64,000 bases of DNA from positions 69,847 through 133,846 of the forward strand of contig JALNXB010000001.1 of NCBI GenBank assembly GCA_023230585.1, written 5' to 3'. Positions 4,328-21,682 of this stretch are shown piece after piece. A model generated the notes under the pieces. That model had not been told where the DNA came from. It searched no databases and saw nothing but the letters and a program-made list of their open reading frames with translations. Both the position numbers and the translations under genes were made by a program. The stretch comes from a bacterium. GTDB lineage: Bacteria; Ratteibacteria; UBA8468; B48-G9; JAFGKM01. Every line of letters starts with the position of its first letter. Position 1 is the stretch's first letter.

Positions 4328-4330
4328 ATA

Positions 4331-5530
4331 ATGAAAAACAAAAAGAAGAAAGTTGTTGTGCCAATAGGTCCTTACCACCCTCTACTTGAAGAACCAGAGT
4401 TTTTTGCTCTATATTGTGAAGGAGAAAAGGTTGTTGATGTGGAATGGCAAGCAGGTTACAACCATAGAGCAATAGAAAAGTTGTCTGAAGGTAAACATTG
4501 GGACCAGGTAACGTTTCTTGTGGAAAGGATATGTGGGATATGTTCTACCTCGCACCCTTTTGCGTATTGTAACGCTGTGGAAGACCTGTTGGGTATATCT
4601 ATACCAGACAAAGCCAAATATATTAGGTGCGTAATTGGAGAGATGGAGAGAATACATAGCCACCTTTTATGGGTAGGGCTTGCTGGTCATTTTCTTGGGT
4701 ATAACACAATTTTTATGTGGGCGTGGAAATATAGAGAATCTATTCTTGAGATGTTTGAGATAATAACAGGTAATAGAAACCATTATGCTATGTTTAAGAT
4801 AGGTGGTGTTAGACGAAATATTGAAGATGAAGATATCCCTACTTTAAGAAAAGTGTTGACCAACCTTGCCGGGAAACTTAAGATGCTTACTAATGCGGTT
4901 CTTGATGACCCTGTTTTAGGTGTTCGTTTGAAAGGTGTGGGTGTTTTAACAGAAGAGCATATTAAAGATTTTGGTGCGATAGGTCCTGTTGCAAGGGCAA
5001 GCGGTGTTTCAGTAGATGTAAGAAAAGATGACCCGTACTCTGCATACCCTTTTTTAGATTGGAAGGTTATAAAGACACAAAACGGGGATGTTTTTGATAA
5101 AGCTGTAGTAAGATTGCTTGAATGTATGGAGTCGGTACAAATTATTGAGCAAGCATTAAATTTTATTGAAGGCAACGATGGAGAAATACTAAATGAGGTT
5201 AGAGAAATACCTCCAGGCGAGGGGATAGGTCACCACGAAGCTCCTCGTGGCGAGTGTTTCCATTATGTAAAAAGCGATGGAGCCAACAGCCCAGTTAGAC
5301 ATAAAATACGGGCTCCCAGTTCTAACAATATACCTACCTTTAAAGCAAGTTGTATAGGACAAATGATATCAGATGTTGCAATTATCCTTGCCGCTGTTGA
5401 CCCGTGTTACTGTTGCACAGAAAGGGTTGCAGTATACGATATTGAAAAGAAGAATAAGAAGAGGTACGATTTTTCTGATTTGGTTGAACTCTCAAGAAAA
5501 AGAACTGAAGAATTGAGAAGAGAGGTATAA
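4331..5530 (+). CDS. Group 4 [NiFe]-hydrogenase large subunit (NuoD/EchE/MbhL-like)
   Basis: N-terminal RICGICSTSH (RxCGxCxxxH, L1) and C-terminal DPCYCCTER (DPCxxCxxR, L2) Ni-Fe ligand motifs both present. Confidence 0.8.
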   Translation: MKNKKKKVVVPIGPYHPLLEEPEFFALYCEGEKVVDVEWQAGYNHRAIEKLSEGKHWDQVTFLVERICGICSTSHPFAYCNAVEDLLGISIPDKAKYIRCVIGEMERIHSHLLWVGLAGHFLGYNTIFMWAWKYRESILEMFEIITGNRNHYAMFKIGGVRRNIEDEDIPTLRKVLTNLAGKLKMLTNAVLDDPVLGVRLKGVGVLTEEHIKDFGAIGPVARASGVSVDVRKDDPYSAYPFLDWKVIKTQNGDVFDKAVVRLLECMESVQIIEQALNFIEGNDGEILNEVREIPPGEGIGHHEAPRGECFHYVKSDGANSPVRHKIRAPSSNNIPTFKASCIGQMISDVAIILAAVDPCYCCTERVAVYDIEKKNKKRYDFSDLVELSRKRTEELRREV

Positions 5531-5537
5531 AAAAGGA

Positions 5538-6155
5538 ATGAGAAAACCTAAACTAAGGGAACTTAAAGAAGCTATATCAAGTATTTTTTCAAAACCTTTT
5601 ACAACAGAATTCCCTTTTAAAACTCATACTCCAGCAGAAAGGTTTAGAGGAAAACCTGAATATAATCAAGATACCTGTGTAGGTTGTGGGGCTTGTTTTC
5701 AAGTCTGTCCTTCTAACGCTATTGAGATGATAGATACAGTTGTTGAAGGTAAAGGCAAACGTGTACTTGTTCAACATCCTAAGGATTGCCTGTTTTGTGG
5801 AGAATGCGAAAGAAACTGTATCACTGAAACAGGTATACAGCTTACTAAAGTTTTTGATGTATCTTACTTTGACGAGAAAAAAGTTCAAAGTAGTATAGAG
5901 CATAACCTTGTTGTTTGTAAGCATTGTAAAGAGGTTATAGGGGCAGAAAAACATATCCTCTGGACCTTAAGGAAACTTGGTAACCTTGCATATTCTCAAC
6001 CTGTGATGATATCTGGATTGATGTCAGATTTGGAGCTAAAGGTTGAGGTAGAAGAGACCGTGGTAGCCCCTATACAGAGAACAGATATCCTTAAGGTTGT
6101 ATGCCCTAAATGTAGGCGTCTTGCTTTTATAACAGATGAGAAGAGGGAGAGGTAG
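5538..6155 (+). CDS. 2x[4Fe-4S] ferredoxin subunit (NuoI/MbhN-like) with extra C-terminal Cys pairs
   Basis: CVGCGACFQVCP and CLFCGECERNC motifs; further CKHC...CPKC pairs C-terminal. Confidence 0.6.
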   Translation: MRKPKLRELKEAISSIFSKPFTTEFPFKTHTPAERFRGKPEYNQDTCVGCGACFQVCPSNAIEMIDTVVEGKGKRVLVQHPKDCLFCGECERNCITETGIQLTKVFDVSYFDEKKVQSSIEHNLVVCKHCKEVIGAEKHILWTLRKLGNLAYSQPVMISGLMSDLELKVEVEETVVAPIQRTDILKVVCPKCRRLAFITDEKRER

Positions 6156-6161
6156 TCATAA

Positions 6162-7583
6162 ATGTATATTGACCAAAAAATGTTGATGTCAGTTTTGCTG
6201 TTGCCTTTTGCTGGCGCACTTATAGTACTGCTGTTACCAGCAAGGAGATCCATTATAACAGGTTTTTTCGTTCTTTTAACACAATTAGTTTGCTCTTTTC
6301 CTATTATTAACACTATGGTTGGGTGTGGTCCTGTACAAGTACAAGAGCGTTTTAGGGAAAACACAGTTGAGGTGAGTATTCTTAATGTCTTTTTTAGATG
6401 TACTTCATTAAGTTACATCTTTGCTTTGACTTCTATTTTTGTGGGAGTAGTTATATACCTCTTTTCTCTGGGTTATTTTAAGGAAGAGAAGGTTGAAGAA
6501 CAAAAGAAATTTTCTTTCTGGGGGTTGCTCTTTATAGGGAGTATGATGGGGGTGATATTTTCTGATAACCTTATCTCTCTATACCTTTTTTGGGAACTGG
6601 CAGGGTTATGTTCTTGGAAACTTATAGGTTTTTACAGAAAAGACGAGCACCTCTTAAAAGCAGATAAGGCCTTTCTTATTACTAGCGCTGGTGCCGGGTT
6701 GATGATGTTAAGTTTTGCGTGTATATATGCGCAGACGGGAACCTTAAGTTTATCTCAGTTATCTTGTCAGCAAGTATCTCCTTTGGTGTTTACTCTTTTT
6801 TTTATAGGGGTATTAACAAAGTCAGCCAGTTTCCCTTTTCATACGTGGTTACCCGACGCATCTGTTGCCCCTACTCCCGTAACGGCCTTTCTTCATGCTG
6901 CTGTCCTTGTGAAGATAGGTGTCTATGGGCTTTTTAAGATTTTTGTTAGAACACTTTTGGTTTCAGGGTGGACATTATGGGCGGGGTGGCTGGCTCTCTT
7001 TAGTAGTATTGTTGCTGGTATTATTGCTTTAAGAGAAGAAGATATAAAGAAGATACTTGCTTTTTCTACTGTTAGCCAACTTGGTTTAATGATAGCCGGG
7101 CTGATGGTATTTAATATGACGGCAGCTGAGGGTGTGTTAATATTTTATTTTGCTCACGCTCTGGGTAAAGGAGGGCTTTTTCTTTGTGCCGGTGTTATTG
7201 AGAGGGTATTTGGTACAAAAAATATTAAAGAGATGGGTGGTTTAATAAAAGAGATGCCAGCACTAACTTTTGCTTTTTTTATAGGGATGCTCTCTGTAAT
7301 AGGGATACCACCTTTACCGGGTTTTTTTGGTAAATTAGAGATTATAATAGGAATGGTTCAAAGTAAACAGATTATTTATGCTCTCTCTGCTATTCTTTCA
7401 TCGGTTTTAACTCTTTTATATATGTTCAGGTTTTTCTTTTATGTGTTTATGGGGGAAAAAAGAGAGGTTTTGAGAGAAAATAGAGTTGGGTTTAAACCTA
7501 TGCTTACTTCTGTCCTGTTACTTGCAATAGTTTCTCTTGTTTTGGTTATAATTATGACAGGGCACTATTTTAAATTTCTTTAG
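6162..7583 (+). CDS. MrpD/NuoM/N-like antiporter-type membrane subunit (MbhH-like)
   Basis: ~473 aa polytopic protein with HTWLPDA motif characteristic of NuoL/M/N-MrpA/D family. Confidence 0.65.
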   Translation: MYIDQKMLMSVLLLPFAGALIVLLLPARRSIITGFFVLLTQLVCSFPIINTMVGCGPVQVQERFRENTVEVSILNVFFRCTSLSYIFALTSIFVGVVIYLFSLGYFKEEKVEEQKKFSFWGLLFIGSMMGVIFSDNLISLYLFWELAGLCSWKLIGFYRKDEHLLKADKAFLITSAGAGLMMLSFACIYAQTGTLSLSQLSCQQVSPLVFTLFFIGVLTKSASFPFHTWLPDASVAPTPVTAFLHAAVLVKIGVYGLFKIFVRTLLVSGWTLWAGWLALFSSIVAGIIALREEDIKKILAFSTVSQLGLMIAGLMVFNMTAAEGVLIFYFAHALGKGGLFLCAGVIERVFGTKNIKEMGGLIKEMPALTFAFFIGMLSVIGIPPLPGFFGKLEIIIGMVQSKQIIYALSAILSSVLTLLYMFRFFFYVFMGEKREVLRENRVGFKPMLTSVLLLAIVSLVLVIIMTGHYFKFL

Positions 7584-7658
7584 TTTTTATGTAATTATGT
7601 TATATCAAACGGATATGATTAGTTGTAGAGAATTATATATACCAATGGAGGGAAAAAG

Positions 7659-9494
7659 TTGAATCTTAATGTGTGGTTTCTACCTGTAATAATAAGTTTT
7701 GGAATATCTTTACTTCATCTTGTTTCTCCCAGGATGGGCAGAAAGTATAGAAGATGGGTCTCGCTATTTGGAGGGTTCGCTATTCTTGTGAGTTGCTTAT
7801 ACTCTCTTTATATTAACAATGATTATCTTTACTCTTGGCAAAACTTTGGTCTTCTTTTTGGTATACTTATCTCAGCTATCTCTCTTTCAAGTATCTCTTT
7901 TTCTCAGTGGTACAATCCTGACGACGGTTACGCCTATGACTCCCTGCTCTTTCTATTTATTGGTGCAATGAACGGGGTGGTCTTATCTCACTCTTTTATT
8001 GCCCTATTCGTATATTGGGAAATAATGACCATTGCAAGTTTCTTTCTTGTTCTTTTTAATGATACCATCGAAGCAAGGCAGGCATCAGTTAAATACATAA
8101 TTATGACAGGAGCGGGGAGTATGATGCTTCTTTTTGGAATTATTGGTATCTTAGTTGGCACTACCATTATCGGTGACAATATTGTATGGGAACATATCTT
8201 TTTTGCTTCTATACTTATTGGCACAGGCATTAAAGCTGGCATTATTCCTTTACATACTTGGCTTCCTGATGCCCATCCTGCAGCTCCAACACCTGTCTCC
8301 TCTATGTTATCAGGGATAATGATTAAGACAGGTGTTTATGCTTTTATAAAACTATATTTTGGAATATTTAACCCTTCGTGGTCATTATCTTGGGATGTAA
8401 TCCTAACTATAATAGGTGTTTTGACTCTTGTAGGCGGGGTGTTCCTTGCTCTTATCCAGAGTGATATAAAAAGACTTCTTGCTTACCATAGTATCAGCCA
8501 GATAGGGTATATCTTTCTTGGTATATCTTGCGGTACAAGTATAGGTCTTGTTGGTGCTATCTACCACACAATTAACCACGCCATATTCAAAAGTTTACTC
8601 TTTCTTGGCGCAGGAGTCTTGATAAAAACAACAGGTTCTCGATACCTACAAGATTACGGAGGGCTTGCTAAAAAATTACCCTTCACTTTTGCTGTTATGA
8701 CTGTTGCTTCAATGTCTATATCAGGGATACCTCCGTTTAATGGTTTTATTTCAAAATGGATAATCTATCAAGCGCTCCTAACTAAAGGAAACAGTTTGTC
8801 TATTTTTGCTATGGTTGCTGCTCTATTGGGTAGCGTTTTAACACTTGCTTCTTTTATAAAAGTTTTGAACGATTCGTTTATGGGGGTAAGAGAGAAAGAA
8901 CTAAAAGGAGAAAGATTGGAAAGTTCTCCCTTTATGAATATACCTATGTTTATTTTAGCACTGGGCTGTTTTATTTTTGGAGTTTTTCCAGGGTTGGTAT
9001 TAGAGAGAATTGTTTTTCCCTCTATTGGAGAGTATGTGAACCTTAACATTTCGCATATAAAATTGGTTGGTATGTATGGGTGGTTGGTCATAGTTTTATT
9101 TATATTTGTACTTGTGTTTACCAAGTTTTTTAAAAAAGTAAGGATAGTGAAAAACTTTGTAGGTGGAGAACTTTTATCTTCTCAAGATACATCTTTTGAT
9201 GGTACCCATTTTTATGGCACAATAAAAGATATTCCTTTAATTAAGATATTCTATTTGGCAGAAGAGAGGGGTGCCCTTGATATTTACCAGAGAGCTCTAC
9301 AATCTCTTCCCAAAACAGGTAGATTCTTTAAAGTTATAGGGGTTAGAATGGTAGACAACGTGTACCATAGAGGAAACCATATCTTAAACAGGTGGGTATC
9401 TAAACTTAAAGTGATACAGAACGGGCTGCTTGCAAAGTATATTATATGGATTTTTGCAGGGATTATACTATTAATGGAGGTTATAAGAAGATGA
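7659..9494 (+). CDS. MrpA/NuoL-like antiporter subunit
   Basis: 611 aa polytopic protein with LHTWLPDAHPAAPTPVS motif. Confidence 0.65.
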   Translation: MNLNVWFLPVIISFGISLLHLVSPRMGRKYRRWVSLFGGFAILVSCLYSLYINNDYLYSWQNFGLLFGILISAISLSSISFSQWYNPDDGYAYDSLLFLFIGAMNGVVLSHSFIALFVYWEIMTIASFFLVLFNDTIEARQASVKYIIMTGAGSMMLLFGIIGILVGTTIIGDNIVWEHIFFASILIGTGIKAGIIPLHTWLPDAHPAAPTPVSSMLSGIMIKTGVYAFIKLYFGIFNPSWSLSWDVILTIIGVLTLVGGVFLALIQSDIKRLLAYHSISQIGYIFLGISCGTSIGLVGAIYHTINHAIFKSLLFLGAGVLIKTTGSRYLQDYGGLAKKLPFTFAVMTVASMSISGIPPFNGFISKWIIYQALLTKGNSLSIFAMVAALLGSVLTLASFIKVLNDSFMGVREKELKGERLESSPFMNIPMFILALGCFIFGVFPGLVLERIVFPSIGEYVNLNISHIKLVGMYGWLVIVLFIFVLVFTKFFKKVRIVKNFVGGELLSSQDTSFDGTHFYGTIKDIPLIKIFYLAEERGALDIYQRALQSLPKTGRFFKVIGVRMVDNVYHRGNHILNRWVSKLKVIQNGLLAKYIIWIFAGIILLMEVIRR

Positions 9495-10021
9495 TACTAA
9501 ATATACCTCTCTTATCTTCTCTGTTGGTTCTTATGGCTGTTGGTTCTGTTATTGCAATATCAGCAAAAAGTCTTACCTCTTCTGTTGTGGCAATGGGTAC
9601 AGCAGGCCTTATTCTGAGTATCCTCTTTCTTATTCTTGGAGCGCCTGATATTGCTATAGTACAGGTCTTTGTGGAGATTGTAGCGTTAATCGTTCTATTA
9701 TCAATTATTTCACGAGAATCTTCTGCGGATATGTCTTCGTCGGGTATGTACGCAGGGTTTGTGCTACTTATTTTTAGTATATTTCTTTTTACTTTTATGC
9801 TTAACTCTAAACTGTTTTTAAGACCTTTTGGGGAACCGCTTATGACTATGGGCTCGGGGTACCTAAAATCTTCGGTAGAAACATTAAAAGGAGCGGATGT
9901 TGTCAACTCTATAGTACTTGATTTAAGAGGTTATGATACACTTGGTGAAGCTACAATTATTTTTACTGCTATATTGGGGGTATTGGCGATGTTGCGGCTA
10001 AAAGGGAGGATTGATGGATAA
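9446..10021 (+). CDS. MrpA C-terminal-domain-like / MbhD-E-like small membrane subunit
   Basis: Hydrophobic 191 aa; follows MrpA-like gene; ends ...LKGRIDG immediately before repeat insertion. Confidence 0.4.
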   Translation: MDFCRDYTINGGYKKMILNIPLLSSLLVLMAVGSVIAISAKSLTSSVVAMGTAGLILSILFLILGAPDIAIVQVFVEIVALIVLLSIISRESSADMSSSGMYAGFVLLIFSIFLFTFMLNSKLFLRPFGEPLMTMGSGYLKSSVETLKGADVVNSIVLDLRGYDTLGEATIIFTAILGVLAMLRLKGRIDG

Positions 10022-10026
10022 AGGGA
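9999..10026. repeat. 28-bp direct repeat (left copy) 'taaaagggaggattgatggataaaggga'
   Basis: Perfect identity with 10785-10812 by eye. Confidence 0.8.
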
Positions 10027-10784
10027 CAAAAAAGTATGTGGTGTCTACTCACTCTGGAACTACGGTGCATACACCTTCTACACAACAATCGGGCACTCTG
10101 AGAACTTACCCTTCTGCATAAAAGGCATCTCCGAAGGGTTTAACAGGCTCAGTGTAGTAGAACAAAAGGCTTGAACCTTTTGTTAACAGCCCGATTCTTG
10201 CTTGAGTTGTAGTAGCACCTCGTAATTCGTTCATAGACACATACTTTTTTAACGAAAAGAAAAACAAAGGCAATGATAAAAGCATAAAAGAAAAGCGTAT
10301 GGGGTGTTTACTCACTCTGGTACTACGGTGCATACACCTTTCCTTTTTTGCCTTCTACCCTTAGGGGATGTTTGGGGTAGTAAGTCCCCAAGAGTTTGCA
10401 AAGAGGTTAATGGGATGAGGTTTATCCGCCGAAGCTTGCATTTTAGCGCAGGTGGAGGGGTAGTTAGCAACTTAACCAAAAACGAAAGACGTAATGATAA
10501 AAGATGAGATTGCCCCCTGCATGTCATTCCGGACTTGATCCGGAATCTCGTTTTTACCGCTTCTGTTAAGTGGGTTAGGTTAGAGATCCTGAAACAAGTT
10601 CAGGATAACAAAATGTGGGAGTAGGGGAACAAAAGGCTTGAACCTTTTGTTAACAGCCCCCCATTCCGCCTTTTGTAGTTAGTCTTGCGAGTTTTACCCG
10701 CCGAAGCCTTGGCGTAGGAGGGGCTTCGTAACGTGGCAATCTCGCCGAAGGCGGAAAAGGAATGGGAAGGAATAATAGTATGGT
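10027..10784. mobile_element. 758-bp composite block of dispersed repeat modules inserted between two operon genes (non-coding, MITE-like)
   Basis: Contains duplicated modules 'ggtgtttactcactctggtactacggtgcatacacc' (x2), hairpin 'caaaaggcttgaaccttttgttaacagc' (x2), 'gtcattccggacttgatccggaatctcgtttt', 'ccccattccgccttttgtagtt...', 'gcggaaaaggaatg'; all recur elsewhere in window; flanked by 28-bp direct repeats. Confidence 0.6.
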
Positions 10785-10812
10785 TAAAAGGGAGGATTGA
10801 TGGATAAAGGGA
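10785..10812. repeat. 28-bp direct repeat (right copy)
   Basis: Identical to 9999-10026. Confidence 0.8.
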
Positions 10813-11267
10813 TGAGCGAGATAGTTAAGGGTATTTCAAAAATAGTGTTCCCATTTATTATACTTTTTGGCATTGCTCTTGTTTTATATGGGCATATTAA
10901 TCCAGGGGGCGGATTTTCAGGTGGGGCTGTTTTGGCTGGAGGGTTTGTACTGCTTCTGCTTGCTTTTGGGAAAGATTATGTGTTTAAAGTTTTCCCTCCA
11001 AAAATTGCTCGGCTGATTGATAGTTTAGGGGCTTTAGGGTTTTTGTGTATTGCTGTTTTAGGGTTTACAGGAGGCCACTTCTTTTATAATTTCCTCAATA
11101 AAGGCCGGCTCTTCCATTTATGGAGTGGTGGTACGATGGTATTTGCTAATATTGCTATAGGTATGAAAATTTGTTCAGCTCTTTTTGTTGGCATTTCTGT
11201 TCTGTCTATGGCTCGCCTTGAAAAGAAAGAGAATGGGCCTATATATAGGCAGAGCGGGGAGGAATAA
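10800..11267 (+). CDS. MrpB-like antiporter subunit
   Basis: PGGGFSGGAVLAGG motif typical of MrpB/MnhB; ORF track starts at TTG 10797, ATG at 10800. Confidence 0.55.
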   Translation: MDKGMSEIVKGISKIVFPFIILFGIALVLYGHINPGGGFSGGAVLAGGFVLLLLAFGKDYVFKVFPPKIARLIDSLGALGFLCIAVLGFTGGHFFYNFLNKGRLFHLWSGGTMVFANIAIGMKICSALFVGISVLSMARLEKKENGPIYRQSGEE

Positions 11268-11617
11268 TGGTTATATATCTTCTGGTTGCTCTTATTTTCT
11301 TTATAGGGTTATATGGTATTGTTGCTAAAAAGAATATCATAAAAATTATTATAGGGGCTAACATTGTGGGTTATGCAGTTAATCTGTTGTTTATAGTGAT
11401 GGGGTATCAATGGGGCGGGATGGCTCCGGTGTTAACTGAAAAGACCAAACCAGATGAATTCTATAAGTTAGCCGTTGACCCTTTACCTCAGGCACTTGTT
11501 TTAACATCAATAGTTATTGACCTTGCTTTCCTTGCTTTTTTGTCTGCACTTGCTATCCGTCTTTATGAAAAGTATGAAACCTTTGATATAGAAAAGATGC
11601 GGAGGTTAAAAGGATGA
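11267..11617 (+). CDS. MrpC/NuoK-like subunit
   Basis: 116 aa, three predicted TM helices, taATG overlap, position in Mrp order. Confidence 0.55.
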   Translation: MVIYLLVALIFFIGLYGIVAKKNIIKIIIGANIVGYAVNLLFIVMGYQWGGMAPVLTEKTKPDEFYKLAVDPLPQALVLTSIVIDLAFLAFLSALAIRLYEKYETFDIEKMRRLKG

Positions 11618-13119
11618 ACCTTATTGTTATGCCGGTGGTTATTTATTTAGGTTCTGCTTTTGTTATACCGTTGTTATTTAGGAAGAACGAGGAGTTGGCA
11701 GGGAAATTTACCTGTATATGCACGTTTCTTGCGTTTGTTATATCTATCCTTATAGGAATCAATGTTTTTTCTCAAGGTAGATTTATATCTTTTGCAGGCG
11801 GTTGGGAAAATCCCGTAGGTATAGCTTTAATGGTTGACCCTTTATCTGCGTTATTTCTTATAGTATGCAATTTTATAACATTCTTCATACTACTATATTC
11901 AGATACCTATATGAAAAAATATACAGGTAGAATATATTTTAACTCTCTCTTTATGTTAATGCTTGCAGGTATGAACGGTGTACTTATAAGTATGGATATA
12001 TGGAACATTTTTGTCTTTTTTGAAATAGCTTCAATATCGTCTTTTATACTTGTTGCTTTTGGTTTGAAGGCAGAAGAGTTGGAAGCATCATTAAAATATA
12101 CTATTATGGGGTTCTTGGCATCAACTATGATACTTTTTGGCATGGCTATGATATACGGGCTTACTGGGACCTTAAACCTGCCTGATATTGCATTTGCTTT
12201 ATCTAAATTACCTCCTTCTCATTTATGGTTCACTGTTGCTCTGCTTTTGTCTGGGTATATATTAAAGATGGCTCTTGTACCTTTCCATACTTGGCTACCA
12301 GACGCTCATTCTATGGCACCTGCACCAGTGTCGGCTATATTGTCGAGCCTTTTTATAAAAATTATAGGGTTTTACCTTGTGATACGTGTTTCTTTGAACC
12401 TTTTTGGGGATATATACCAGATAAAGACAGCGCTTATTGTGTTGGGAGTGGTGTCTATGATACTTGGCGGTATTATGGCTTATGGACAACAAAATATCAA
12501 ACGGTTGTTTGCCTATTCTACTATCAGTCAGATAGGGTATTGTGCGATTGGAATAGGTATTGGAGGTTACTTGGGATACCTTGGGGCTATTATGCATTTT
12601 ATTGGGCACGCTTTTTCTAAATCACTACTATTTTTAGATATAGGCGCAATTGAATATATGACAGGCACCACTGATTCTAATGATTTGGAAGGAATCAATG
12701 AGCAGATGCCTTTTACAACCTTATTTTCAAATATGGGAATGTTCGGAATATCAGGTATTCCTCCTTTAGGTAATTTTTGGAGTAAACTGATTATTATACT
12801 TGCAGCTGTAAAAGCAGGATACTTTGGGGTTGCTCTTTTATCAGTTTTTGTTGCTGTCTTAACTCTCGGGTATTTTCTTAAACTATTAAGGAACGTCTAC
12901 TACAACAAACCTAAAACCAAAGAAGAAAAAAAAGAAGCTCCTTTGGGGTTGTTGGTGCCAATGGCAACCTTATCGTTTATGGTGCTATTTACAGGGGTTT
13001 TTCTGATACCTTCTATAAGAAAAACTGTTTTAGATAAAACCGTTGGAGTGATGGAAAACTTTTCGTATAAAAGTTTACATATTTCGGAAACCGATGAAAG
13101 TATATTGTTAGAAGAGTAA
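11614..13119 (+). CDS. MrpD/NuoN-like antiporter subunit
   Basis: 501 aa with FHTWLPDAHSMAPAPVS motif. Confidence 0.7.
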   Translation: MNLIVMPVVIYLGSAFVIPLLFRKNEELAGKFTCICTFLAFVISILIGINVFSQGRFISFAGGWENPVGIALMVDPLSALFLIVCNFITFFILLYSDTYMKKYTGRIYFNSLFMLMLAGMNGVLISMDIWNIFVFFEIASISSFILVAFGLKAEELEASLKYTIMGFLASTMILFGMAMIYGLTGTLNLPDIAFALSKLPPSHLWFTVALLLSGYILKMALVPFHTWLPDAHSMAPAPVSAILSSLFIKIIGFYLVIRVSLNLFGDIYQIKTALIVLGVVSMILGGIMAYGQQNIKRLFAYSTISQIGYCAIGIGIGGYLGYLGAIMHFIGHAFSKSLLFLDIGAIEYMTGTTDSNDLEGINEQMPFTTLFSNMGMFGISGIPPLGNFWSKLIIILAAVKAGYFGVALLSVFVAVLTLGYFLKLLRNVYYNKPKTKEEKKEAPLGLLVPMATLSFMVLFTGVFLIPSIRKTVLDKTVGVMENFSYKSLHISETDESILLEE

Positions 13120-13131
13120 AAGGAAAAAGAA

Positions 13132-13617
13132 ATGAGATACTTTTTTATGTTTATAGTTTTGTATATTATCTGGCTAATGGTAACTTGCAATATGGAGGTT
13201 GCCAATTTTTATGCTGGGGCAATCGTTGCTTTAATTGTTACAGCGTTATTTGGGAAAGAATTTCCTTACCACCCTAAACATACTTTTCAAATAAAGAGAT
13301 ACTTTGCATTTATTAAATTTTTAGGTGTCTTTTTTGTGCAGGTTGTACATGCTAACTTCATAATGGCTTATAGGGTTTTAAGTCCAAACTTACCAATTAA
13401 ACCGGGGATAGTAGAGATACCTCTCTATCTTAAATCCCCTCTGGGTAGAGTAATTCTTGCTAACGCTATCACTCTTGCGCCGGGCACTTTTACTATGGAC
13501 ATCACAAGTGATACACTTATATTACACTGGATATACGTACAGACAGAAGACCCACATAAAGCAGAAGAAATTATATGCGGTAGGTTACAAAGAATTCTTA
13601 AGGAGGTATTTGAATGA
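13132..13617 (+). CDS. MrpE-like subunit
   Basis: 161 aa, N-terminal hydrophobic; position in MrpA-G order. Confidence 0.45.
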   Translation: MRYFFMFIVLYIIWLMVTCNMEVANFYAGAIVALIVTALFGKEFPYHPKHTFQIKRYFAFIKFLGVFFVQVVHANFIMAYRVLSPNLPIKPGIVEIPLYLKSPLGRVILANAITLAPGTFTMDITSDTLILHWIYVQTEDPHKAEEIICGRLQRILKEVFE

Positions 13618-13868
13618 TTGCCTTATTAGTTTTTTTAACAGTGTGTGTTGCTTTGTGTGTCTACAGAATTTTTGTTGGACCTACTTCTGCAGACAGGATG
13701 GTAGGGATAGATATTCTTGGTATAATAGTTGTGATATTTTGTGTTCTATTGGCGTTATACACAGGTTTTGATTATTATATGAATATAGGTATCGCTTGGT
13801 CAATTATTGGTTTTGTTAGTACAATCACTTTTGCAAAGTTTCTTGAAGGGAGGCATTTAGATGAGTGA
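13614..13868 (+). CDS. MrpF-like subunit
   Basis: 84 aa hydrophobic, overlapping start/stop with neighbours. Confidence 0.45.
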   Translation: MIALLVFLTVCVALCVYRIFVGPTSADRMVGIDILGIIVVIFCVLLALYTGFDYYMNIGIAWSIIGFVSTITFAKFLEGRHLDE

Positions 13869-14181
13869 AGTTATTGGGCAAATATTTCTTGTTGTAGGGT
13901 TATGTTTTACATTTTTTGGATGTGTAGGGTTGGTAAGAATGCCTGACGTATACTGCAGGTTGCAGGCGGCAACAAAATGTGTTACTCTGGGAACAGGTAG
14001 TGTTTTGATAGGGGCTCTTATAATAACAGGGTTTACTGGTATAGGAATAAAATCTTTGGTATGTTTTATATTTCTTTTTTTAAACTCACCAACGGCTGCA
14101 CACGCTCTTGCTAAATCAGCTAAAGCTGCTGGAGTGCCTGTCTGGAAAAAAACTGAACCTGATAAAAACAAAAATCTCTAA
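13861..14181 (+). CDS. MrpG-like subunit
   Basis: 106 aa, N-terminal TM helices; end of Mrp module. Confidence 0.5.
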   Translation: MSEVIGQIFLVVGLCFTFFGCVGLVRMPDVYCRLQAATKCVTLGTGSVLIGALIITGFTGIGIKSLVCFIFLFLNSPTAAHALAKSAKAAGVPVWKKTEPDKNKNL

Positions 14182-14224: not shown

Positions 14225-14494
14225 ATGCATGAACTTGTATTGATTTCAAATCTTTTAAAAATTCTTAACAAAATAAAAGAAGACGATAGGAATATATATT
14301 CTTTTCTGGCAATACATATTACTGTAAACCCATATAGTTGTATAGATGAGGAAAATCTTAATTTTATGTTTCGCTCTGTAGTCGGAAAAGAAGAGATATA
14401 TAAAGATGCTAAAATATGTGTAACAAGAGGGGCTAACCCTGCTGATAGAGAGTTTATACTTGATAATGTGGAGGTAGAGGTTTATGAAGAATAA
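14225..14494 (+). CDS. hypA: HypA-like hydrogenase nickel-insertion protein, N-terminal Ni-binding domain only (no Zn-finger CxxC...CxxC)
   Basis: Starts MHEL (conserved MHE Ni site) and resembles HypA N-domain; only two Cys in 89 aa; overlaps hypB start. Confidence 0.45.
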   Translation: MHELVLISNLLKILNKIKEDDRNIYSFLAIHITVNPYSCIDEENLNFMFRSVVGKEEIYKDAKICVTRGANPADREFILDNVEVEVYEE

Positions 14495-15602
14495 GGTTAA
14501 AACAATTAAGGTAGGAGCAAGCATATTGAAAGAAAATGATAAAATATCTGAAGAGAATAGGTTATTATTTGAAAAAAACAATGTGTGCTGTATAAATGTT
14601 ATGGGGTCTCCCGGTTCGGGTAAAACATCTCTACTTGAGAAGACAATACCTAAACTTAAATTAAAAAATATAAAACCTGGGGTTATAGAGGGAGATATAG
14701 AAGGAACGTTAGATGGTGAACGGCTTTTAAAATATGGTATACCTGTGGTGCAGATAAACACAGGGGGAGCGTGTCATCTGGATGCCAATATGGTAAAGAA
14801 AGGCCTTGAGAACCTCAATTTGAATGAGATAGATATCCTATTTATTGAAAATGTTGGCAATCTTGTATGCCCTGCTGCGTTTACTCTCGGCGAAAGTTAC
14901 AACGTTATTATTTCAAGTTGCCCAGAAGGAGAGGAAAAACCTTTAAAATATCCTTTGATGTTTAATATTTCTAATATATGCCTCCTTAATAAAATGGACT
15001 TGTCTGAACATTTGGATTTTAATACCAAACAATTTAAAGAGTACCTATTTAAGGTTGCGCCAGATACTAAACTTATACCGCTATCTTCAAAAACAGGAGA
15101 TGGTTTTGAAGAATGGTTAGATTTTCTTTACTTGTCTGCCCCTGAAAATAAAAAAGAACGTATAGTGGTGGTAGGTTTGGGGGATAGGATGAAAGGGGAC
15201 GATGCAGCAGGATGCGAAATAGCTGAACAACTTCATAAAGAGGATATCTCAGAGAATGTAAAAATAATTAATGCTGAAAACGCTATAGAAAACTATATTG
15301 GCGTGATAAAAGGATTTAAGCCAGATAGAATATATTTTGTTGACGCTGTTGACTTTAGTGGAACTCCAGGAGAAGTAAGACTTATGGAGGCAGGTTCTCT
15401 GGTAAGCAACACCTCTTCAACACATACTTTAGCTTTGCCGTTGATAATAGAAAATATTAAAGCAGAAACTTCTGCAAAATGTACTATCGTTGGAGTTCAA
15501 CCTAAAAAGATATTGTTTTCACAGAAGATTTCAAATGAGGTTAGGGAAGGTATTATGAATGCAGTTAAAATGTTGAGGGAAATATTATGGAAAAAGAGAT
15601 AG
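14484..15602 (+). CDS. hypB: Fusion of HypB nickel-GTPase and hydrogenase maturation endopeptidase (HycI/HybD-like)
   Basis: P-loop GSPGSGKTSLLEKT, CHLDANMV, ENVGNLVCPAAF (HypB) followed in same frame by VVVGLGDRMKGDDAAGCEIAEQL (HycI/HybD N-terminal signature). Confidence 0.75.
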   Translation: MKNKVKTIKVGASILKENDKISEENRLLFEKNNVCCINVMGSPGSGKTSLLEKTIPKLKLKNIKPGVIEGDIEGTLDGERLLKYGIPVVQINTGGACHLDANMVKKGLENLNLNEIDILFIENVGNLVCPAAFTLGESYNVIISSCPEGEEKPLKYPLMFNISNICLLNKMDLSEHLDFNTKQFKEYLFKVAPDTKLIPLSSKTGDGFEEWLDFLYLSAPENKKERIVVVGLGDRMKGDDAAGCEIAEQLHKEDISENVKIINAENAIENYIGVIKGFKPDRIYFVDAVDFSGTPGEVRLMEAGSLVSNTSSTHTLALPLIIENIKAETSAKCTIVGVQPKKILFSQKISNEVREGIMNAVKMLREILWKKR

Positions 15603-15952
15603 TTATGAAGTATGCAAATAAAGAAATCAAAATTTTAATGAAAGATAGCCGTTTAGCAAAAGCAATATGTGAGAAATTACCGTTTAAGGTGAATGTAAAT
15701 GTTTGGGGTAGAGAAATCTATTTTGAGATACCTGTAAAGTCCAGTATAACAGACTCTGTAATAGAACTTGAAGAAGGAGATGTGGCTTACTGGCCAGATG
15801 GAAGGTGTCTATGCTTTTTTTTCGGACCCACCCCAGCAAGCACAGGAACAAAACCAAAAGCTGCCGGTTATGTTGAGGTGGTTGGAAGGGTTACTTCTGA
15901 TTTGAAAGAACTTGAAAAGGTGAAATCAGGAGAAGAGGTGGTAATTGAATGA
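15587..15952 (+). CDS. Hypothetical protein, possibly cyclophilin-like (TM1367-type) fold
   Basis: Motif AYWPDGRCLCFFFGPTP recalled from cyclophilin-like DUF family; weak. Confidence 0.3.
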   Translation: MEKEIVMKYANKEIKILMKDSRLAKAICEKLPFKVNVNVWGREIYFEIPVKSSITDSVIELEEGDVAYWPDGRCLCFFFGPTPASTGTKPKAAGYVEVVGRVTSDLKELEKVKSGEEVVIE

Positions 15953-15965
15953 AGACGTAAAAAAC

Positions 15966-16174: not shown

Positions 16175-17467
16175 TTGATACTTTTATGCAATATAATGGA
16201 AGAATATAAAATGATTAGAGATATTTTGATTATTCAAAAGCGAGAACTGGAACAAAAACAGAAAGAAAGGTTTATTGAGAGGCAGGTTGATTATACAACA
16301 CCTATGAAAAACGATTTAGTAAAGGTGATTATTGGTCCTCGCCGGGCGGGAAAATCTTCACTTGCTTTCAATATGCTTAAATCATTAAAAGAAAAATTTG
16401 GTTATGTCAATTTTGATGATGAAAGACTTGTTGGGATTAAAAATTATGATGATATCATTAATGCTATTGAGTCTGTTTACGACAACCCAAAATTTATTTT
16501 GTTTGATGAAATACAGAACCTTACCAAATGGGAACTGTTTGTAAACCGTTTACAAAGGCAAGGGTACAACCTTGTTATTACTGGTAGTAACTCAAATCTT
16601 TTAAGCAAAGAACTTGCTTCTCATCTTACCGGTAGACATATCTTGATAAATATTTTGCCTTTTTCGTTTGCGGAGTTTTTAACAGCAGGGGCAGAACATC
16701 TAATCCTAACAGAAAGCGAAAAGAGAGCAAAACTTTCAGACTATATTTACTGTGGTGGATACCCTGAACCTCTTTTTAAACAACTGGATGAAAAAGAATA
16801 TCTTGCTACTCTTTATAACTCAATTATTTATAAAGATATCATTAGCCGATTTAAAATTCGTATTGTGCCAGCAATAGAAAACCTTGCGGGATATCTTTTA
16901 TCTAATACAGGTAGAGAGTTTTCTTATAATACATTGTGTAAAATTTCTGGTTGTGGAAGTGTCCATACAGTAGACAAGTATCTACAATACCTTGAAGAGT
17001 CTTTTCTATTTTTTAAAATACATAGGTTCTCTCCTAACTTTGAAGGGCAACTAAGTTCTAATAAGAAAGTCTACTGTATTGATAATGGTTTTATTCAAAG
17101 CAGATCTTTTAAGACAGAAGACTATATTTCAACCCTATACGAAAATGTTGTAGCGGTTAAACTCAAGAAAGACGAGATGAACGGAGGGGCAAAGGTATTT
17201 TACTGGAAACACCCTCTTCAACAGGAGGTTGATTTTGTCCTTAAAGATGGTGTAGAAGTAAAGAAATTGATACAGGTATGTTGGAATATTGAAGATGTAC
17301 AAAAAAGAGAGAAAAAAGAAAAATCTTTGATGAAAGCAGGTAATCAAGTAAAATGCGATAACTTGTTTGTTCTTAATGATAATTATGAAGGGGAAGAAGA
17401 ATTTACATGGTTTGGGGTAACCAGAACAATTAAATATATTTCTTTATGGAAATGGTTACTTGAGTAA
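16175..17467 (+). CDS. AAA+ ATPase of the COG1373/DUF4143 type
   Basis: Walker A GPRRAGKSSLA, Walker B ILFDEIQ; C-terminal domain typical of DUF4143 proteins; start may be internal Met. Confidence 0.65.
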   Translation: MILLCNIMEEYKMIRDILIIQKRELEQKQKERFIERQVDYTTPMKNDLVKVIIGPRRAGKSSLAFNMLKSLKEKFGYVNFDDERLVGIKNYDDIINAIESVYDNPKFILFDEIQNLTKWELFVNRLQRQGYNLVITGSNSNLLSKELASHLTGRHILINILPFSFAEFLTAGAEHLILTESEKRAKLSDYIYCGGYPEPLFKQLDEKEYLATLYNSIIYKDIISRFKIRIVPAIENLAGYLLSNTGREFSYNTLCKISGCGSVHTVDKYLQYLEESFLFFKIHRFSPNFEGQLSSNKKVYCIDNGFIQSRSFKTEDYISTLYENVVAVKLKKDEMNGGAKVFYWKHPLQQEVDFVLKDGVEVKKLIQVCWNIEDVQKREKKEKSLMKAGNQVKCDNLFVLNDNYEGEEEFTWFGVTRTIKYISLWKWLLE

Positions 17468-17865: not shown

Positions 17866-19944
17866 ATGATGAGAAAAAAACTGAAAATATGTAAAAACGG
17901 TCTTCCTAACAATACACCAAGCAAGATTAAACTGCCTCCAGACATCTCTATATGCAATGAGTGCCTTGAAGAACTCTTTTCACCACACAACAGAAGGTAT
18001 CTATACCCTTTTATAAATTGTTCTAACTGCGGACCTAAATTTTCTATCGTTAAAGATATCTCCTACAATAGAGATAAAACCTCTATGTATAAGTTTTCGA
18101 TGTGTCCTGATTGTTATAACGAATATACCAACCCATCAGATAGACGGTTTCACACACAATCTGTATGTTGTCCTGTATGTGGTCCAAAATATCTATTGTT
18201 TGATAAAAAAGGTACACAGGTAGGAACCTCCTTAGATGCAATAAAAAAAGCGGTCTCTTTTGTAGAAGAAGGGCATATAGTTGCAATGAAAGGGATAGGC
18301 GGGTACCACCTTGTTTGTGATGCTACAAAAGTGGAGACGGTAAAAACTCTTAGAGTAAGAAAAAAAAGAGGAGATAAACCGTTTGCGCTTATGTCAAAGG
18401 ATATAAATACAATAAAACAATATTGTATTGTAAATAAAGAAGAAAAAGAAACTCTTCTTTCAAAGAGAGCGCCTGTGGTTATTTTAAGGAGAAAAAAAAA
18501 TTGTTGTTTGCCCAGCGATATTGCTCCTAACAATAAATATTTAGGTTTTTTTCTACCATACACTCCTGCCCATTATATCTTATTCTATTTTGGTAGGTTT
18601 GACACAATCATTGCAACCAGTGCAAATATATCTGATGAACCTACTTTTTATCAAGATGCAGATGTTTGTGATAATCTTTCTGTTGTTGCAGACTACATTC
18701 TTACCAATAACAGAAAAATAGAGATAGGTTGTGATGATTCTGTTGTAAAAATTGAGAAATTTAACAAAAAAACACATATACTGAGAAGGTCTCGAGGGTT
18801 TGTACCAGAACCTATAAGAACACCTTTTTCTGTTTCGCAACCAGTCTTTGCAACAGGTGCTGATATGAAAAATACCTTTTCTTTTGGGGTAGGGAACAAT
18901 ATTTTTACAAGCCAACATATTGGAAATCTTGAAAACCTAAAATCTTTTTTATTCTATAAAAACAGTTACCAACATTGGAAAAAGATTACTGGGTTTACAC
19001 CAAAATTAGTGGCTTGCGACCTTCATCCTGATTATATGTCCAGTAGTTTTGCTAAAGAAGTGGCACAGAAAGAAGGTGTTCCTTATGTTGGAGTTCAGCA
19101 TCACCACTCCCATATTGCTGCTTGTATGCTTGAAAATATGCTTCCAAATAAAGACGTTATAGGTATTGCTTTAGACGGAACAGGGTTTGGAGAAGCAGAG
19201 GATATTAGGGGGTGTGAGGTTATGATTGCCTCTTATAGCGGATATAAAAGGTATGCTTGGCTCGATTACATAGGGTTACCTGGGGGGGACATCTCTGTTA
19301 AAGAAGTATGGAGAACAGGGTTGTCATATCTTTATAACTCTTTTGGTAAAGATGTTTCTGGTATGAATATATCTTTATTTAAAGATGTTCCTTTTAAAAA
19401 GATGTATGGGGTTTATGAGATGCTAAAAAAAGATATTAACTGTACTCTTGCCTCCAGTATGGGGCGGTTGTTTGACGGTGTTGCTTCAATAATAGGGTTA
19501 CAAAATGAGGTATCTTTTGATGCCCAAGCAGCCATTGCACTTGAAATGGTTGCAAATAAATCTTCTTCTACATTTTATTCGTTTGATATAAAACAAGCGA
19601 AAGACAAAGGTTCTTTTGTTATAGATTATACGCCTGTAATAAGAGATATTGTTAAAGATATCCTCAAAAATAAAGATGTTGGTCTTATCTCTTGCAAGTT
19701 TCACAAAGGAGTGGTTGAAATAATTACAGAAATATGTAAAGCCATAAAACAAGAAAAGAATATATCTGCAACAGTCCTTACTGGCGGGGTTTTCCAAAAC
19801 TCGTTTCTTATGAAAATGATGAGCGAAAAACTTACCAACGAAGGTTTTCAAGTATACACCCATAGTCTGTTACCTTCCAATGATGGCGGTATATCTGCAG
19901 GGCAAGTTGCTGTTGCTTCTTTTAGTCAGTTGGCTGAATTTTAA
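17866..19944 (+). CDS. hypF: HypF carbamoyltransferase lacking N-terminal acylphosphatase domain
   Basis: Two Zn-finger CxxC..CxxC pairs at N-terminus, YrdC-like VAMKGIGGYHLVCDA, C-terminal Kae1-like region; begins directly with Zn fingers. Confidence 0.8.
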   Translation: MMRKKLKICKNGLPNNTPSKIKLPPDISICNECLEELFSPHNRRYLYPFINCSNCGPKFSIVKDISYNRDKTSMYKFSMCPDCYNEYTNPSDRRFHTQSVCCPVCGPKYLLFDKKGTQVGTSLDAIKKAVSFVEEGHIVAMKGIGGYHLVCDATKVETVKTLRVRKKRGDKPFALMSKDINTIKQYCIVNKEEKETLLSKRAPVVILRRKKNCCLPSDIAPNNKYLGFFLPYTPAHYILFYFGRFDTIIATSANISDEPTFYQDADVCDNLSVVADYILTNNRKIEIGCDDSVVKIEKFNKKTHILRRSRGFVPEPIRTPFSVSQPVFATGADMKNTFSFGVGNNIFTSQHIGNLENLKSFLFYKNSYQHWKKITGFTPKLVACDLHPDYMSSSFAKEVAQKEGVPYVGVQHHHSHIAACMLENMLPNKDVIGIALDGTGFGEAEDIRGCEVMIASYSGYKRYAWLDYIGLPGGDISVKEVWRTGLSYLYNSFGKDVSGMNISLFKDVPFKKMYGVYEMLKKDINCTLASSMGRLFDGVASIIGLQNEVSFDAQAAIALEMVANKSSSTFYSFDIKQAKDKGSFVIDYTPVIRDIVKDILKNKDVGLISCKFHKGVVEIITEICKAIKQEKNISATVLTGGVFQNSFLMKMMSEKLTNEGFQVYTHSLLPSNDGGISAGQVAVASFSQLAEF

Positions 19945-21682
19945 ACTCAAACGCCTTGTGAATATCCTGCTCCAGTGCATCAAATTCTGTTAGACGTGTA
20001 GGTGGTATATATCTTGCTTTTACAATTGCTTCTCTTATATCCATTTTCATAATTTCGTCTAAATCTGCACCTTCTGAGATTTTTTTACTTGCCAGACGAT
20101 GAAAAAGTAGTATAGAGTTGAGCATTTTATACTGCTTTTGAAGTGTAGTATAAGAATCTCTTTCATCAAAAGCACTCTGGTGGAGAAAGTCTTCTCTAAT
20201 AGAGCGGGCTGTTTCCAGCACAAGTCTATCTTGTGCAGATAAAGTTTCCATTCCTACAAGACGGACAATCTCATTTAAGTCTGCCTCTTTTTCCAGTATA
20301 ACTATTGTATCATTCTTGTTTTTAATAAAATCTTCACCAACATCTTTAGTAAGAAAATCTTTGATATTGTCTTCATATAAAGAGTAACTTGTAAGCCAGT
20401 TTATGGCAGGGAAATGCCTCTGATAAGCAAGTTTATCGTCAAGACCCCAGAATACCTTGACAACTCTAAGAGTCATCTGTACAACAGGGTCTGTTAGGTC
20501 GCCACCGGGAGGGCTTACAGCGCCTATAACAGATAGAGAACCTGTCTTTTCTGCCTGTCCAAGGCAAGAGACTTTTCCTGCTCTTTCATAAAATGATGCT
20601 ACACTTGTTCCCAAGTAAGCAGGGTATCCTTCTTCGCCGGGCATTTCTTCCATTCTACCTGACATTTCTCTTAAAGCCTCTGCCCATCTACTGGTTGAAT
20701 CTGCCATTAATGCTACAGAATATCCCATATCTCTAAAATATTCTCCAAGAGTTATTCCAGTATAGATAGAAGCTTCCCTTGCAGCCACAGGCATATTAGA
20801 TGTATTGGCTATAAGAATGGTACGCTCCATCAAAGGTCTGTCAGAAGCAGGGTCTTTAAGTTCAGGGAACTCTATCAGAACATCAGCCATCTCATTGCCT
20901 CTCTCGCCACAACCTATATAAACTATTATTTGTGCGTCTGCCCATTTTGCTACCTGGTGCATAACTACTGTTTTTCCGCTACCAAACGGACCTGGAATAC
21001 AAGCAGTACCACCTTTCATAACAGGGAAAAGTGTATCTATAATTCGTTGCCCAGTAACAAGAGGTTGGTCGGGAGAGAGTTTGTTTTTTACAGGTCTTCT
21101 TTGGCGTACAGGCCATTTTTGCATAAGGTAGAAAGGTGTCTCACCTTTGTTTGTCTTGATTTTGCCTATAACATCTTCAACCGTAAAATCTCCTGCTTTT
21201 ATTTCTATTAATTCACCTTCCAAATAAGGTGGTAACATTATTTTATGCATAAGTAACGGGGTTTCCTGCACTTCGCCAACAATATCTCCGCCTTTAAGGT
21301 GGTCTCCTTTACTTACAAAAGGAGTAAATTTCCACTTCTTTTCCCTGTCTAACGGAGGCATTTCTAACCCTCTGAGTATAAAATCTCCTCCTGCTTCAAG
21401 TTTAGACAAAGGTCTTTGTATCCCGTCAAATATATTTGTTAGAAGTCCAGGACCAAGTTCTACTTCAAGAGGTACACCTGTTTCATAGACAGGGTCGCCG
21501 ACTTTAAGGCTTTCTGTCTCTTCATATACTTGAATAGAGGCGATATTATCTTCAATACGTATTACTTCTCCAACAAGCCGTACATCGCCAACCCTCACAA
21601 CATCATACATTTTTGCTCCGCTCATTCCTTCTGCTTGAACAAGAGGTCCGCTTACCTTAATTATTCTACCTTGTTGAGCCAT
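19922..21682 (-). CDS. atpA: V-type (A/V) ATP synthase catalytic subunit A
   Basis: Walker A GPFGSGKT, 586 aa, N-terminal beta-barrel region typical of V/A-type subunit A. Confidence 0.85.
   Translation of the reverse strand: MAQQGRIIKVSGPLVQAEGMSGAKMYDVVRVGDVRLVGEVIRIEDNIASIQVYEETESLKVGDPVYETGVPLEVELGPGLLTNIFDGIQRPLSKLEAGGDFILRGLEMPPLDREKKWKFTPFVSKGDHLKGGDIVGEVQETPLLMHKIMLPPYLEGELIEIKAGDFTVEDVIGKIKTNKGETPFYLMQKWPVRQRRPVKNKLSPDQPLVTGQRIIDTLFPVMKGGTACIPGPFGSGKTVVMHQVAKWADAQIIVYIGCGERGNEMADVLIEFPELKDPASDRPLMERTILIANTSNMPVAAREASIYTGITLGEYFRDMGYSVALMADSTSRWAEALREMSGRMEEMPGEEGYPAYLGTSVASFYERAGKVSCLGQAEKTGSLSVIGAVSPPGGDLTDPVVQMTLRVVKVFWGLDDKLAYQRHFPAINWLTSYSLYEDNIKDFLTKDVGEDFIKNKNDTIVILEKEADLNEIVRLVGMETLSAQDRLVLETARSIREDFLHQSAFDERDSYTTLQKQYKMLNSILLFHRLASKKISEGADLDEIMKMDIREAIVKARYIPPTRLTEFDALEQDIHKAFEFKIQPTD

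Follow-up and report, generated by a model that had tools for sequence, protein, structure and literature searches.

A HypB nickel GTPase fused in frame to a HycI-type hydrogenase maturation endopeptidase in uncultivated bacteria

Here we describe a gene, a hypB-hycI fusion, that encodes the nickel GTPase HypB and a HycI-type [NiFe]-hydrogenase maturation endopeptidase as a single polypeptide. The gene lies in a 64,000-nucleotide (nt) stretch of DNA (hereafter the window) from a bacterium of the Ratteibacteria (GenBank assembly GCA_023230585.1, contig JALNXB010000001.1, positions 69,847 to 133,846 of the forward strand), where it follows the genes of a group 4 membrane-bound [NiFe]-hydrogenase and a short hypA. 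The fusion had been proposed in an earlier reading of these letters alone (the sequence-only reading); the comparisons reported here confirm, at the level of sequence, a natural and evolutionarily maintained gene, and we consider it probable that its product is a genuine bifunctional maturation factor for the adjacent hydrogenase. What is unusual is the covalent linkage, as both domains belong to textbook families.

One reading frame, two complete domains

The fusion is an ATG-started open reading frame (ORF) of 372 codons without an internal stop, both in the ORF list and in the raw sequence, and its translation is identical to NCBI entry MCK9265341.1, which is annotated as 'HypB' only. The sequence GGAGG/GAGG precedes the start codon, and the start overlaps the end of hypA by 11 nt. 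At about 15130-15170, around the junction, the other two frames are repeatedly interrupted by stops, and the junction therefore cannot be re-read as two overlapping genes. Within the one frame, profile searches and structure-model matches recognize two complete domains, as the sequence-only reading had proposed, and all of the motifs that it quoted are present: GSPGSGKT at residues 41-48, C97-H98, ENVGNLVCP at residues 122-130, and VVVGLGDRMKGDDAAGCEIAEQL from residue 229. A Pfam scan assigns residues 37-197 to cobW/HypB (E 6.6e-20) and residues 245-364 to HycI (E 1.7e-14).

By these comparisons the N-terminal part is a complete HypB G-domain, for which GTP hydrolysis and the binding and transfer of nickel are predicted. 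The NCBIfam profile TIGR00073 scores 251.2 bits against an equivalog cut-off of 121.2, with residues 8-216 lying on positions 4-211 of its 217. In addition to the P-loop, the GTPase motifs include ENVG at residues 122-125 (the switch II ExxG) and NKMD at residues 169-172; the metal ligands of the G-domain, C97-H98 and C129 of ENVGNLVCP, are also in place, and with them the dimer-interface site. C97, H98 and C129 align with residues that we take to be C95, H96 and C127 of M. jannaschii HypB. Residues G41, K47, T48, C97, H98, E122, N126, C129, N169, K170 and D172 are invariant in all 25 fusions aligned. The high-affinity nickel site of the CxxCGC or His-rich type was not found at the N-terminus of the fusion protein, and the archaeal HypBs likewise have neither.

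Among solved structures, residues 7-221 match the stand-alone HypBs of M. jannaschii (2hf8, E 4e-49; also 2hf9), A. fulgidus (2wsm) and H. pylori (4lps), which align with the fusion over their full length at 38-42% identity and share its P-loop, Cys-His, ENVGNLxCP and NKxD motifs. Foldseek comparison of an AlphaFold2 model with these structures gives template modelling (TM) scores of 0.90-0.93; on 2hf8 the TM score is 0.93, with a root mean square deviation of 1.3 Å over 206 columns. Known HypBs stop where the linker of the fusion begins, whereas the fusion continues for about 155 further residues that form a second enzyme.

This C-terminal part is, on the same kinds of evidence, a complete endopeptidase domain of the HycI/HybD family, for which nickel-dependent cleavage is predicted. 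The sequence-only reading had allowed that domain searches might fail to recognize it as HycI-like; instead, the superfamily profile TIGR00072 scores 92.9 bits (cut-off 47.45), with residues 228-367 on profile positions 1-144 of 145, and Pfam HycI scores 54.2 bits (threshold 23). HycI is also the best-scoring subtype, at 101.1 bits compared with 48.9 for FrhD and 42 for HupD. In an alignment with HycI of E. coli and T. kodakarensis, the proposed metal ligands D240 (in GDD), D287 (in VDAVDF) and H314 (in SSTHT) fall on the GDD, xDA and TH positions, and residues D234, D239, D240, D287 and H314 are invariant in 25 of 25 fusions. The conserved Asp/Glu, Asp and His residues of this cleft have been proposed to bind the nickel of the substrate (PMC12134894). 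Structure matches cover residues 223-369 and include HycI of T. kodakarensis (5zby, E 4e-21) and of E. coli (2e85, 2i8l), all of peptidase family A31; the alignment extends over the whole domain of about 145 residues, the Asp/Asp/His cleft is kept, and the alpha-beta-alpha fold of the modelled half matches at TM scores of 0.76-0.83 (0.83 on 5zby), HybD (1cfz, 5ija) being more distant. Characterized members of the HycI family are free proteins of about 16-18 kDa, whereas the domain in the window, rather than forming a free-standing protein of about 150-165 residues, is the C-terminal part of a 372-residue protein.

The two domains are joined by a linker of about 11 residues, and it is here that the fusions differ most from one another. 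Over the 25 fusions, mean pairwise identity is 0.68 for the HypB half, 0.57 for the protease half and 0.28 for the linker, and the alignment region equivalent to the linker is 16 to 33 residues long. This pattern is what purifying selection on both domains, connected by a free tether, would be expected to leave. The AlphaFold2 model, built from the 25-sequence alignment, has a mean predicted local distance difference test score of 86.3, with both domains confident; sequence matches to the PDB yielded no solved chain that spans both halves.

Distribution and origin of the fusion

How widespread is such a protein, and from what did it arise? The sequence-only reading did not recall the architecture as standard, and database searches bear this out. 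An exhaustive HMMER profile search over 1.84 billion representatives at 50% identity yielded just one full-length fusion representative (P0017, 679 bits), after which the best full match was a plain HypB at 342 bits. Only one other protein in that list has both domains, P0239 (410 residues; locus L087, 631-1863), which is 34% identical to the window protein. The HypB Cys-His motif of P0239 is lost (NTEREHLEAEM stands in its place), its HybD-like protease half seemingly lacks the conserved His, and it comes from one 3.4-kb Logan contig on which no hydrogenase genes are seen; this doubtful singleton may at best be an independent, possibly degenerate, second fusion. We also scanned GTDB, taking one genome per species and using the junction-plus-protease alignment as the query, and called loci fused or stand-alone by separate hidden Markov models (HMMs) for the two halves. 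Fourteen of the 80 loci returned are fused, from about 13 genomes (GTDB species representatives) that are labelled at NCBI as Candidatus Omnitrophota, Candidatus Ratteibacteria or simply 'bacterium'; the other 66, the nearest relatives of the protease half, are stand-alone proteins. The HMM of the protease half gives 199-244 bits in the fused genes and at most 127 bits in these 66 stand-alone relatives.

The same genomes and search lists hold two further observations. In the metagenome-assembled genome (MAG) DAONKS01, partial copies of the fusion lie on two different contigs (L016 and L017) and differ slightly in HMM score, which suggests strain heterogeneity or a duplicated locus in the bin. 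Other long HypBs (P0144, P0210, P0147 and P0186) are singletons attached to S-adenosylmethionine methyltransferase, SLT transglycosylase, YchF C-terminal and MnmE helical domains; we take them for probable assembly chimeras or artefacts of gene calling, useful as a negative control for unsupported fusions. The HypB-HycI clade is unlike such database noise.

The gene of the window recurs, identical, in an ENA MEGAHIT assembly and in the Logan assembly of an SRA run, and the fused gene is thus independent of the assembler; both assemblies match the window DNA at 100% identity over 4.5 kb and do not represent independent populations. A 99%-identical allele of equal length is found in a separate whole-genome shotgun project, LSQX01, in which two of the five substitutions fall in the linker (PENKKE to PEKKEE) and the frame is the same. 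A database search for the same fusion, as the sequence-only reading had advised, found 25 further clusters at 90% identity from many projects, 52-63% identical to the window protein and all with both Pfam domains. Conservation of the fused frame across this clade argues, as that reading had it, for nickel-delivery and protease halves that reside on one polypeptide.

A neighbour-joining tree of 120 HypB domains with 200 bootstraps recovers the 26 fused sequences together as a clade (142 of 200 bootstraps), which in turn falls, together with 23 unfused sequences, within a larger clade (193 of 200). The latter include P0029 and P0035, the closest unfused HypBs, which are on average 55-58% identical to the fused HypB domains. 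The HycI proteins of this sister lineage are the best unfused matches to the fused-protease HMM, at 160 and 143 bits. Because the HypB tree and the HycI scores both point to the sister lineage, the two halves of the fusion are taken to descend from the neighbouring genes by one fusion event, the product of which has been retained.

The operon of the sister lineage (loci L088-L090) illustrates how the fusion could have formed. It has the same group 4 hydrogenase and Mrp genes in the same order, followed by an 85-residue HypA without a zinc finger, hypB (219-220 residues) and hycI (154-155 residues); unlike in the window, hypB keeps its stop and hycI lies in another frame, such that two polypeptides result. 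As called, the two genes overlap by 43-46 nt. The sister hypB ends in ...EWIEYLKGLKREKK and a stop, the ATG of hycI lies within the EW codons and reads MDRILERIKKGEKVAIIGIGNRLKGDD, and the hypB stop falls in an A-rich stretch and precedes the first beta-strand of the protease by one or two codons. The junction of the window, ...EEWLDFLYLSAPENKKERIVVVGLGDRMKGDD, corresponds to this overlap, such that an insertion or deletion (indel) of a single base there would give rise to the fusion. Programmed ribosomal frameshifting in the unfused sister was considered and rejected: judged by eye, GAG AAA AAG TAG in L088 loosely resembles a slippery A AAA AAG, and GAG AAA AGG GAG TAG in L090 lacks it.

Presumed substrate, proposed mechanism and alternatives

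The fusion is the last-but-one gene of a co-directional, tightly packed cluster made up of the hydrogenase genes, hypA, the fusion and a gene for a cyclophilin-like protein. The hydrogenase operon encodes sulfhydrogenase beta/gamma-like subunits, a HycB-like ferredoxin, a NuoH/B/C/D/I-like core, three antiporter-like subunits and an Mrp module (MbhD/E and MnhB, C, D, E, F and G), and L003, L004 and L005 show this order of genes ahead of the fusion as well. At the start of the operon, 91-2542 (+), lie genes for a ShyB/HydB-like FeS protein, a ShyC/HydG-like FAD/NAD(P)-binding protein and the HycB-like ferredoxin, a combination that suggests an NAD(P)H-linked, Mrp-coupled membrane hydrogenase rather than one that is purely ferredoxin- or formate-linked.

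The large subunit of this hydrogenase is the presumed substrate of the fusion. Maturation proteases recognize bound nickel and cut after the Arg or His three residues past the last cysteine. The large subunit of the window carries both NiFe cysteine motifs, RICGICSTSH and DPCYCCTER, and among solved structures it is closest to P. furiosus MbhL (6cfw_L) and E. coli HycE (7z0s_E). Its tail aligns with that of HycE (DPCYSCTDR followed by MTVVDVRKKKSK... in HycE, DPCYCCTER followed by VAVYDIEKKNKK... in the window), and the mature MbhL chain in 6cfw ends at the equivalent Arg. E. coli HycI cuts HycE after Arg537 and removes 32 residues (PMC7654741). By analogy, cleavage of the large subunit is predicted after Arg365. 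The tail is also conserved next to the fusions in L003, L004 and L005; in other words, the group 4 hydrogenase that accompanies the fusion has a large subunit with a HycE-like tail after DPCxxCxxR. A second hypB or hycI was found neither in the 64-kb window nor in the fetched flanks of related loci. Genes for HypC, HypD and HypE were not identified among the window ORFs scanned, and the ORFs at 35814..37938, considered as hypD/hypE, were rejected as AstE/AspA-family enzymes.

In the canonical pathway, HypC, HypD, HypE and HypF deliver Fe(CN)2CO, HypA and HypB add nickel as the last component of the cofactor, and an endopeptidase that takes only the nickel-loaded precursor removes a C-terminal peptide, whereupon the site closes (PMC7654741, PMC12134894). 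By extension from this pathway, the HypB half, together with the short HypA encoded upstream, would load nickel in a GTP-dependent manner into the large subunit that already contains Fe(CN)2CO, and the tethered protease half would then cut off the 34-residue tail after Arg365, locking the cofactor in. Sequence comparison establishes the identity of the domains, their conservation, the gene context, the tail of the presumed substrate and the origin of the fusion; the activities, the order of events and any advantage of tethering are inferred. Fusion would ensure synthesis of the two enzymes at 1:1 and would hold the protease at the site of nickel insertion, and if HypB dimerizes as usual, each chaperone dimer would carry two protease domains. 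A kinetic or fidelity benefit of such tethering is plausible.

Several observations weigh against a bifunctional factor. The full-length polypeptide is known from the gene sequence alone, and the fusion could be selectively neutral, a mere substitute for translational coupling. The predicted template modelling score of the whole-protein model is 0.62, which leaves the relative arrangement of the domains undefined, and because that arrangement is not predicted, there is no specific interdomain interface to back channelling. The protease half scores below the HycI equivalog cut-off (101.1 vs 119.1 bits for TIGR00142), for which reason we file it as HycI-like within the superfamily. The window covers 64 kb of the genome, and other hydrogenases or maturation genes may lie elsewhere. 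Finally, GTG codons for conserved valines open the protease half and could serve as internal starts, and a few members of the clade, in which the protease may be translated separately, have AAGGA-like sequences 5-8 nt upstream of them.

The last of these points leads to the alternative that survives best, namely that the fused ORF is real but yields separate working proteins, by internal GTG initiation or by proteolysis of the linker, such that fusion is a matter of gene packing only. Most members have an in-frame GTG at the start of the protease half, with an AAGGA-like motif a few bases upstream in some; the linker is unconserved and variable, and E. coli HycI begins at the equivalent position. 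However, no conserved ATG or Shine-Dalgarno (SD) sequence was found before the protease half, the 66 nt ahead of the protease domain in the window gene contain no SD-like motif, and L020 has no in-frame start codon there. Moreover, the ancestral two-gene arrangement already gave separate products, and yet the fused frame has been kept down to a divergence of about 52% identity. We therefore regard separate products as unlikely. A second alternative is that one half is catalytically dead and serves for docking or as a scaffold only, the protease to bind the large subunit or the GTPase to dimerize. The divergent P0239 indicates that degenerate versions can exist, and the score of the protease half below the equivalog cut-off fits this idea too; however, the nucleotide-binding, metal-binding and catalytic residues of both halves are invariant in 25 of 25 clade sequences, neither the window nor the fetched flanks of related loci contain a second hypB or hycI, and the large subunit retains a cleavable tail, all of which make a dead half very unlikely. 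Scarcely credible, lastly, is a one-base sequencing or assembly error that falsely merged two genes, for although a single indel in the A-rich overlap of the sister lineage would do just that, the three identical assemblies may share the same reads, and doubtful chimeric HypB singletons do exist in databases, the fused frame recurs in 25 other clusters from many projects and assemblers and in about 13 GTDB species with linkers that differ in length and sequence, is unchanged in the LSQX01 allele despite linker substitutions, and in the window is accompanied by stops in the alternative frames across the junction, a conservation that in effect rules out the junction error named in the sequence-only reading.

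Returning to the bifunctional factor, a bolder version of it can be imagined, in which the fusion goes beyond gene packing and marks an obligate, single maturation machine: the protease would dock on the immature large subunit before nickel arrives, partly replacing the docking otherwise provided by the missing zinc finger of HypA, and GTP hydrolysis by HypB would gate the release or activation of the protease. We think this rather unlikely. If it were true, the insertion of nickel and the irreversible removal of the tail would be coupled mechanically within one HypA-(HypB-HycI)2-large-subunit complex, and, read as a Rosetta stone, the fusion would predict a transient interaction between HypB and the endopeptidase in ordinary organisms such as E. 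coli. We know of no description of such an interaction in E. coli.

Is there a precedent for a tethered metallochaperone of this kind? IcmF, a natural fusion of isobutyryl-CoA mutase, joins a MeaB-like G3E GTPase chaperone to the client enzyme of the same cofactor-loading pathway. Its structure (8ssl) is among the fold matches to the GTPase half, and by analogy we consider it the nearest conceptual precedent for a tethered G3E metallochaperone. Homology between the two fusions is limited to the G3E domain; IcmF joins the chaperone to its client, whereas in the fusion described here HypB is joined to the next processing enzyme. In the literature searched we found no paper that names or describes a HypB-protease fusion, and neither 'fusion' nor 'fused' occurs in a 2025 review of [NiFe]-cofactor assembly (PMC12134894). 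Public records name the fusion proteins just 'HypB', and for this reason the maturation protease would wrongly be scored as absent in metabolic reconstructions of these MAGs.

The fusion would join the last two steps of [NiFe]-hydrogenase assembly in one protein, and it is these steps that set the fidelity of assembly. The timing of the hand-over from nickel insertion to cleavage has been described in outline only (PMC12134894). A tethered HypB-protease provides comparative-genomic evidence that the two activities act close together on the same substrate, and the protein offers a stable, stoichiometric reagent for trapping or imaging the chaperone/large-subunit/protease intermediate. At the same time, it is confined to one clade of uncultivated bacteria and combines well-known domains through a trivial mutation; it refines the known pathway without overturning it, and is rare and mechanistically unsurprising.

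Neighbouring genes and repeats

Table 1. Features of the hydrogenase and maturation locus (positions in the window)
Feature	Position	Strand	Basis
Hydrogenase operon	91..14181	+	Pfam and NCBIfam scans
Group 4 [NiFe]-hydrogenase large subunit, 399 residues	4331..5530	+	Pfam NiFeSe_Hases and Complex1_49kDa
Predicted 34-residue C-terminal assembly peptide, VAVYDIEKKNKKRYDFSDLVELSRKRTEELRREV	5426..5527	+	Alignment with the HycE tail
Short HypA, 89 residues	14225..14494	+	Only positions 1-65 of the 112-position HypA profile are matched; translational coupling with the fusion
hypB-hycI fusion gene	14484..15602	+	One ATG-started ORF of 372 residues, both domains recognized
HypB G3E GTPase/nickel domain, residues 8-216	14505..15131	+	TIGR00073, structure alignments, Foldseek
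Interdomain linker LSAPENKKERI, residues 217-227 (about 11 residues)	15132..15164	+	Alignment; comparison with L088/L090
HycI-type [NiFe]-hydrogenase maturation endopeptidase domain, residues 228-368	15165..15587	+	TIGR00072, alignments, Foldseek
Cyclophilin-like protein, PF04126, TM1367 family, function-uncharacterized	15587..15952	+	Pfam 4e-33; PDB 2ka0/1zx8
hypF carbamoyltransferase, 692 residues	17866..19944	+	Pfam from zf-HYPF; TIGR00143 from profile position 89

Canonical HypA has about 113 residues, including a zinc-finger domain. The HypA of the window keeps the nickel-binding MHE N-terminus and lacks the CxxC zinc-finger domain, and an HMM scan of the fetched loci found CxxC motifs in the HypA of none of the fused or sister loci. 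Short HypAs of 84-91 residues are also encoded in L003-L005, L007, L011-L013, L015, L018, L019 and L088-L090, and a distant 80-residue form occurs beside other types of hydrogenase in L031, L053, L055, L076 and L085 (MAGs of Omnitrophota and WOR-1). The absence of the zinc finger is thus a broader trait than the fusion, being shared with the unfused sister lineage and with distant loci. We found no description of a HypA without a zinc finger, and a word-seeded homologue search with the 89-residue protein returned 2 matches only, too few to be informative. In L004, from the Zodletone MAG of Omnitrophota, two inserted genes, one of them for an AbiEii toxin, stand between the short hypA and the fusion (8683-9941), and tight coupling of the two genes is therefore not obligatory.

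Downstream, the start of the gene for the cyclophilin-like protein overlaps the 3' end of the fusion by 16 nt, and the two are translationally coupled. Such a gene is also found near the fusion in L004 (14426-14803), L006 (3403-3777), L007 (about 7460-7861), L008 (about 5956-6363) and L013. In E. coli, HypB works with SlyD, a peptidyl-prolyl cis-trans isomerase of the FKBP type; by analogy, a role in maturation is conceivable for the cyclophilin-like protein. The HypF of the window lacks the N-terminal acylphosphatase domain, whereas that of L004 (790 residues) has it.

Between the gene for the cyclophilin-like protein and hypF lies a gene for an AAA_14/DUF4143 ATPase (16175..17467), with the two arms of a 38-nt imperfect inverted repeat on either side (15968-16005 / 17586-17623); in L004, too, the fusion is followed by a homologous ATPase gene (11343-12605). 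Short non-coding repeats of one family, in units of 60 and 50 nt with 86-96% identity, fill three intergenic gaps (9996-10812, 15953-16174 and 17468-17865). In Rfam, at gathering thresholds, these regions had no match, the sole match being a tRNA at 38504-38577. A 31-nt direct duplication (9996-10026 = 10782-10812), which includes the ribosome-binding site and start codon of mnhB, flanks the 786-bp gap that separates the mbhDE-like gene from the mnhB-like gene, and in L003 these two genes abut; the gap looks like an insertion, within the hydrogenase operon, of an element similar to a miniature inverted-repeat transposable element. Beyond hypF are a gene for the A subunit of a V/A-type ATPase (19922..21682) and, downstream of it, a Type I restriction-modification system at 23330-30213 (-), with hsdR at 23330..26536 and hsdM at 28087..30213.

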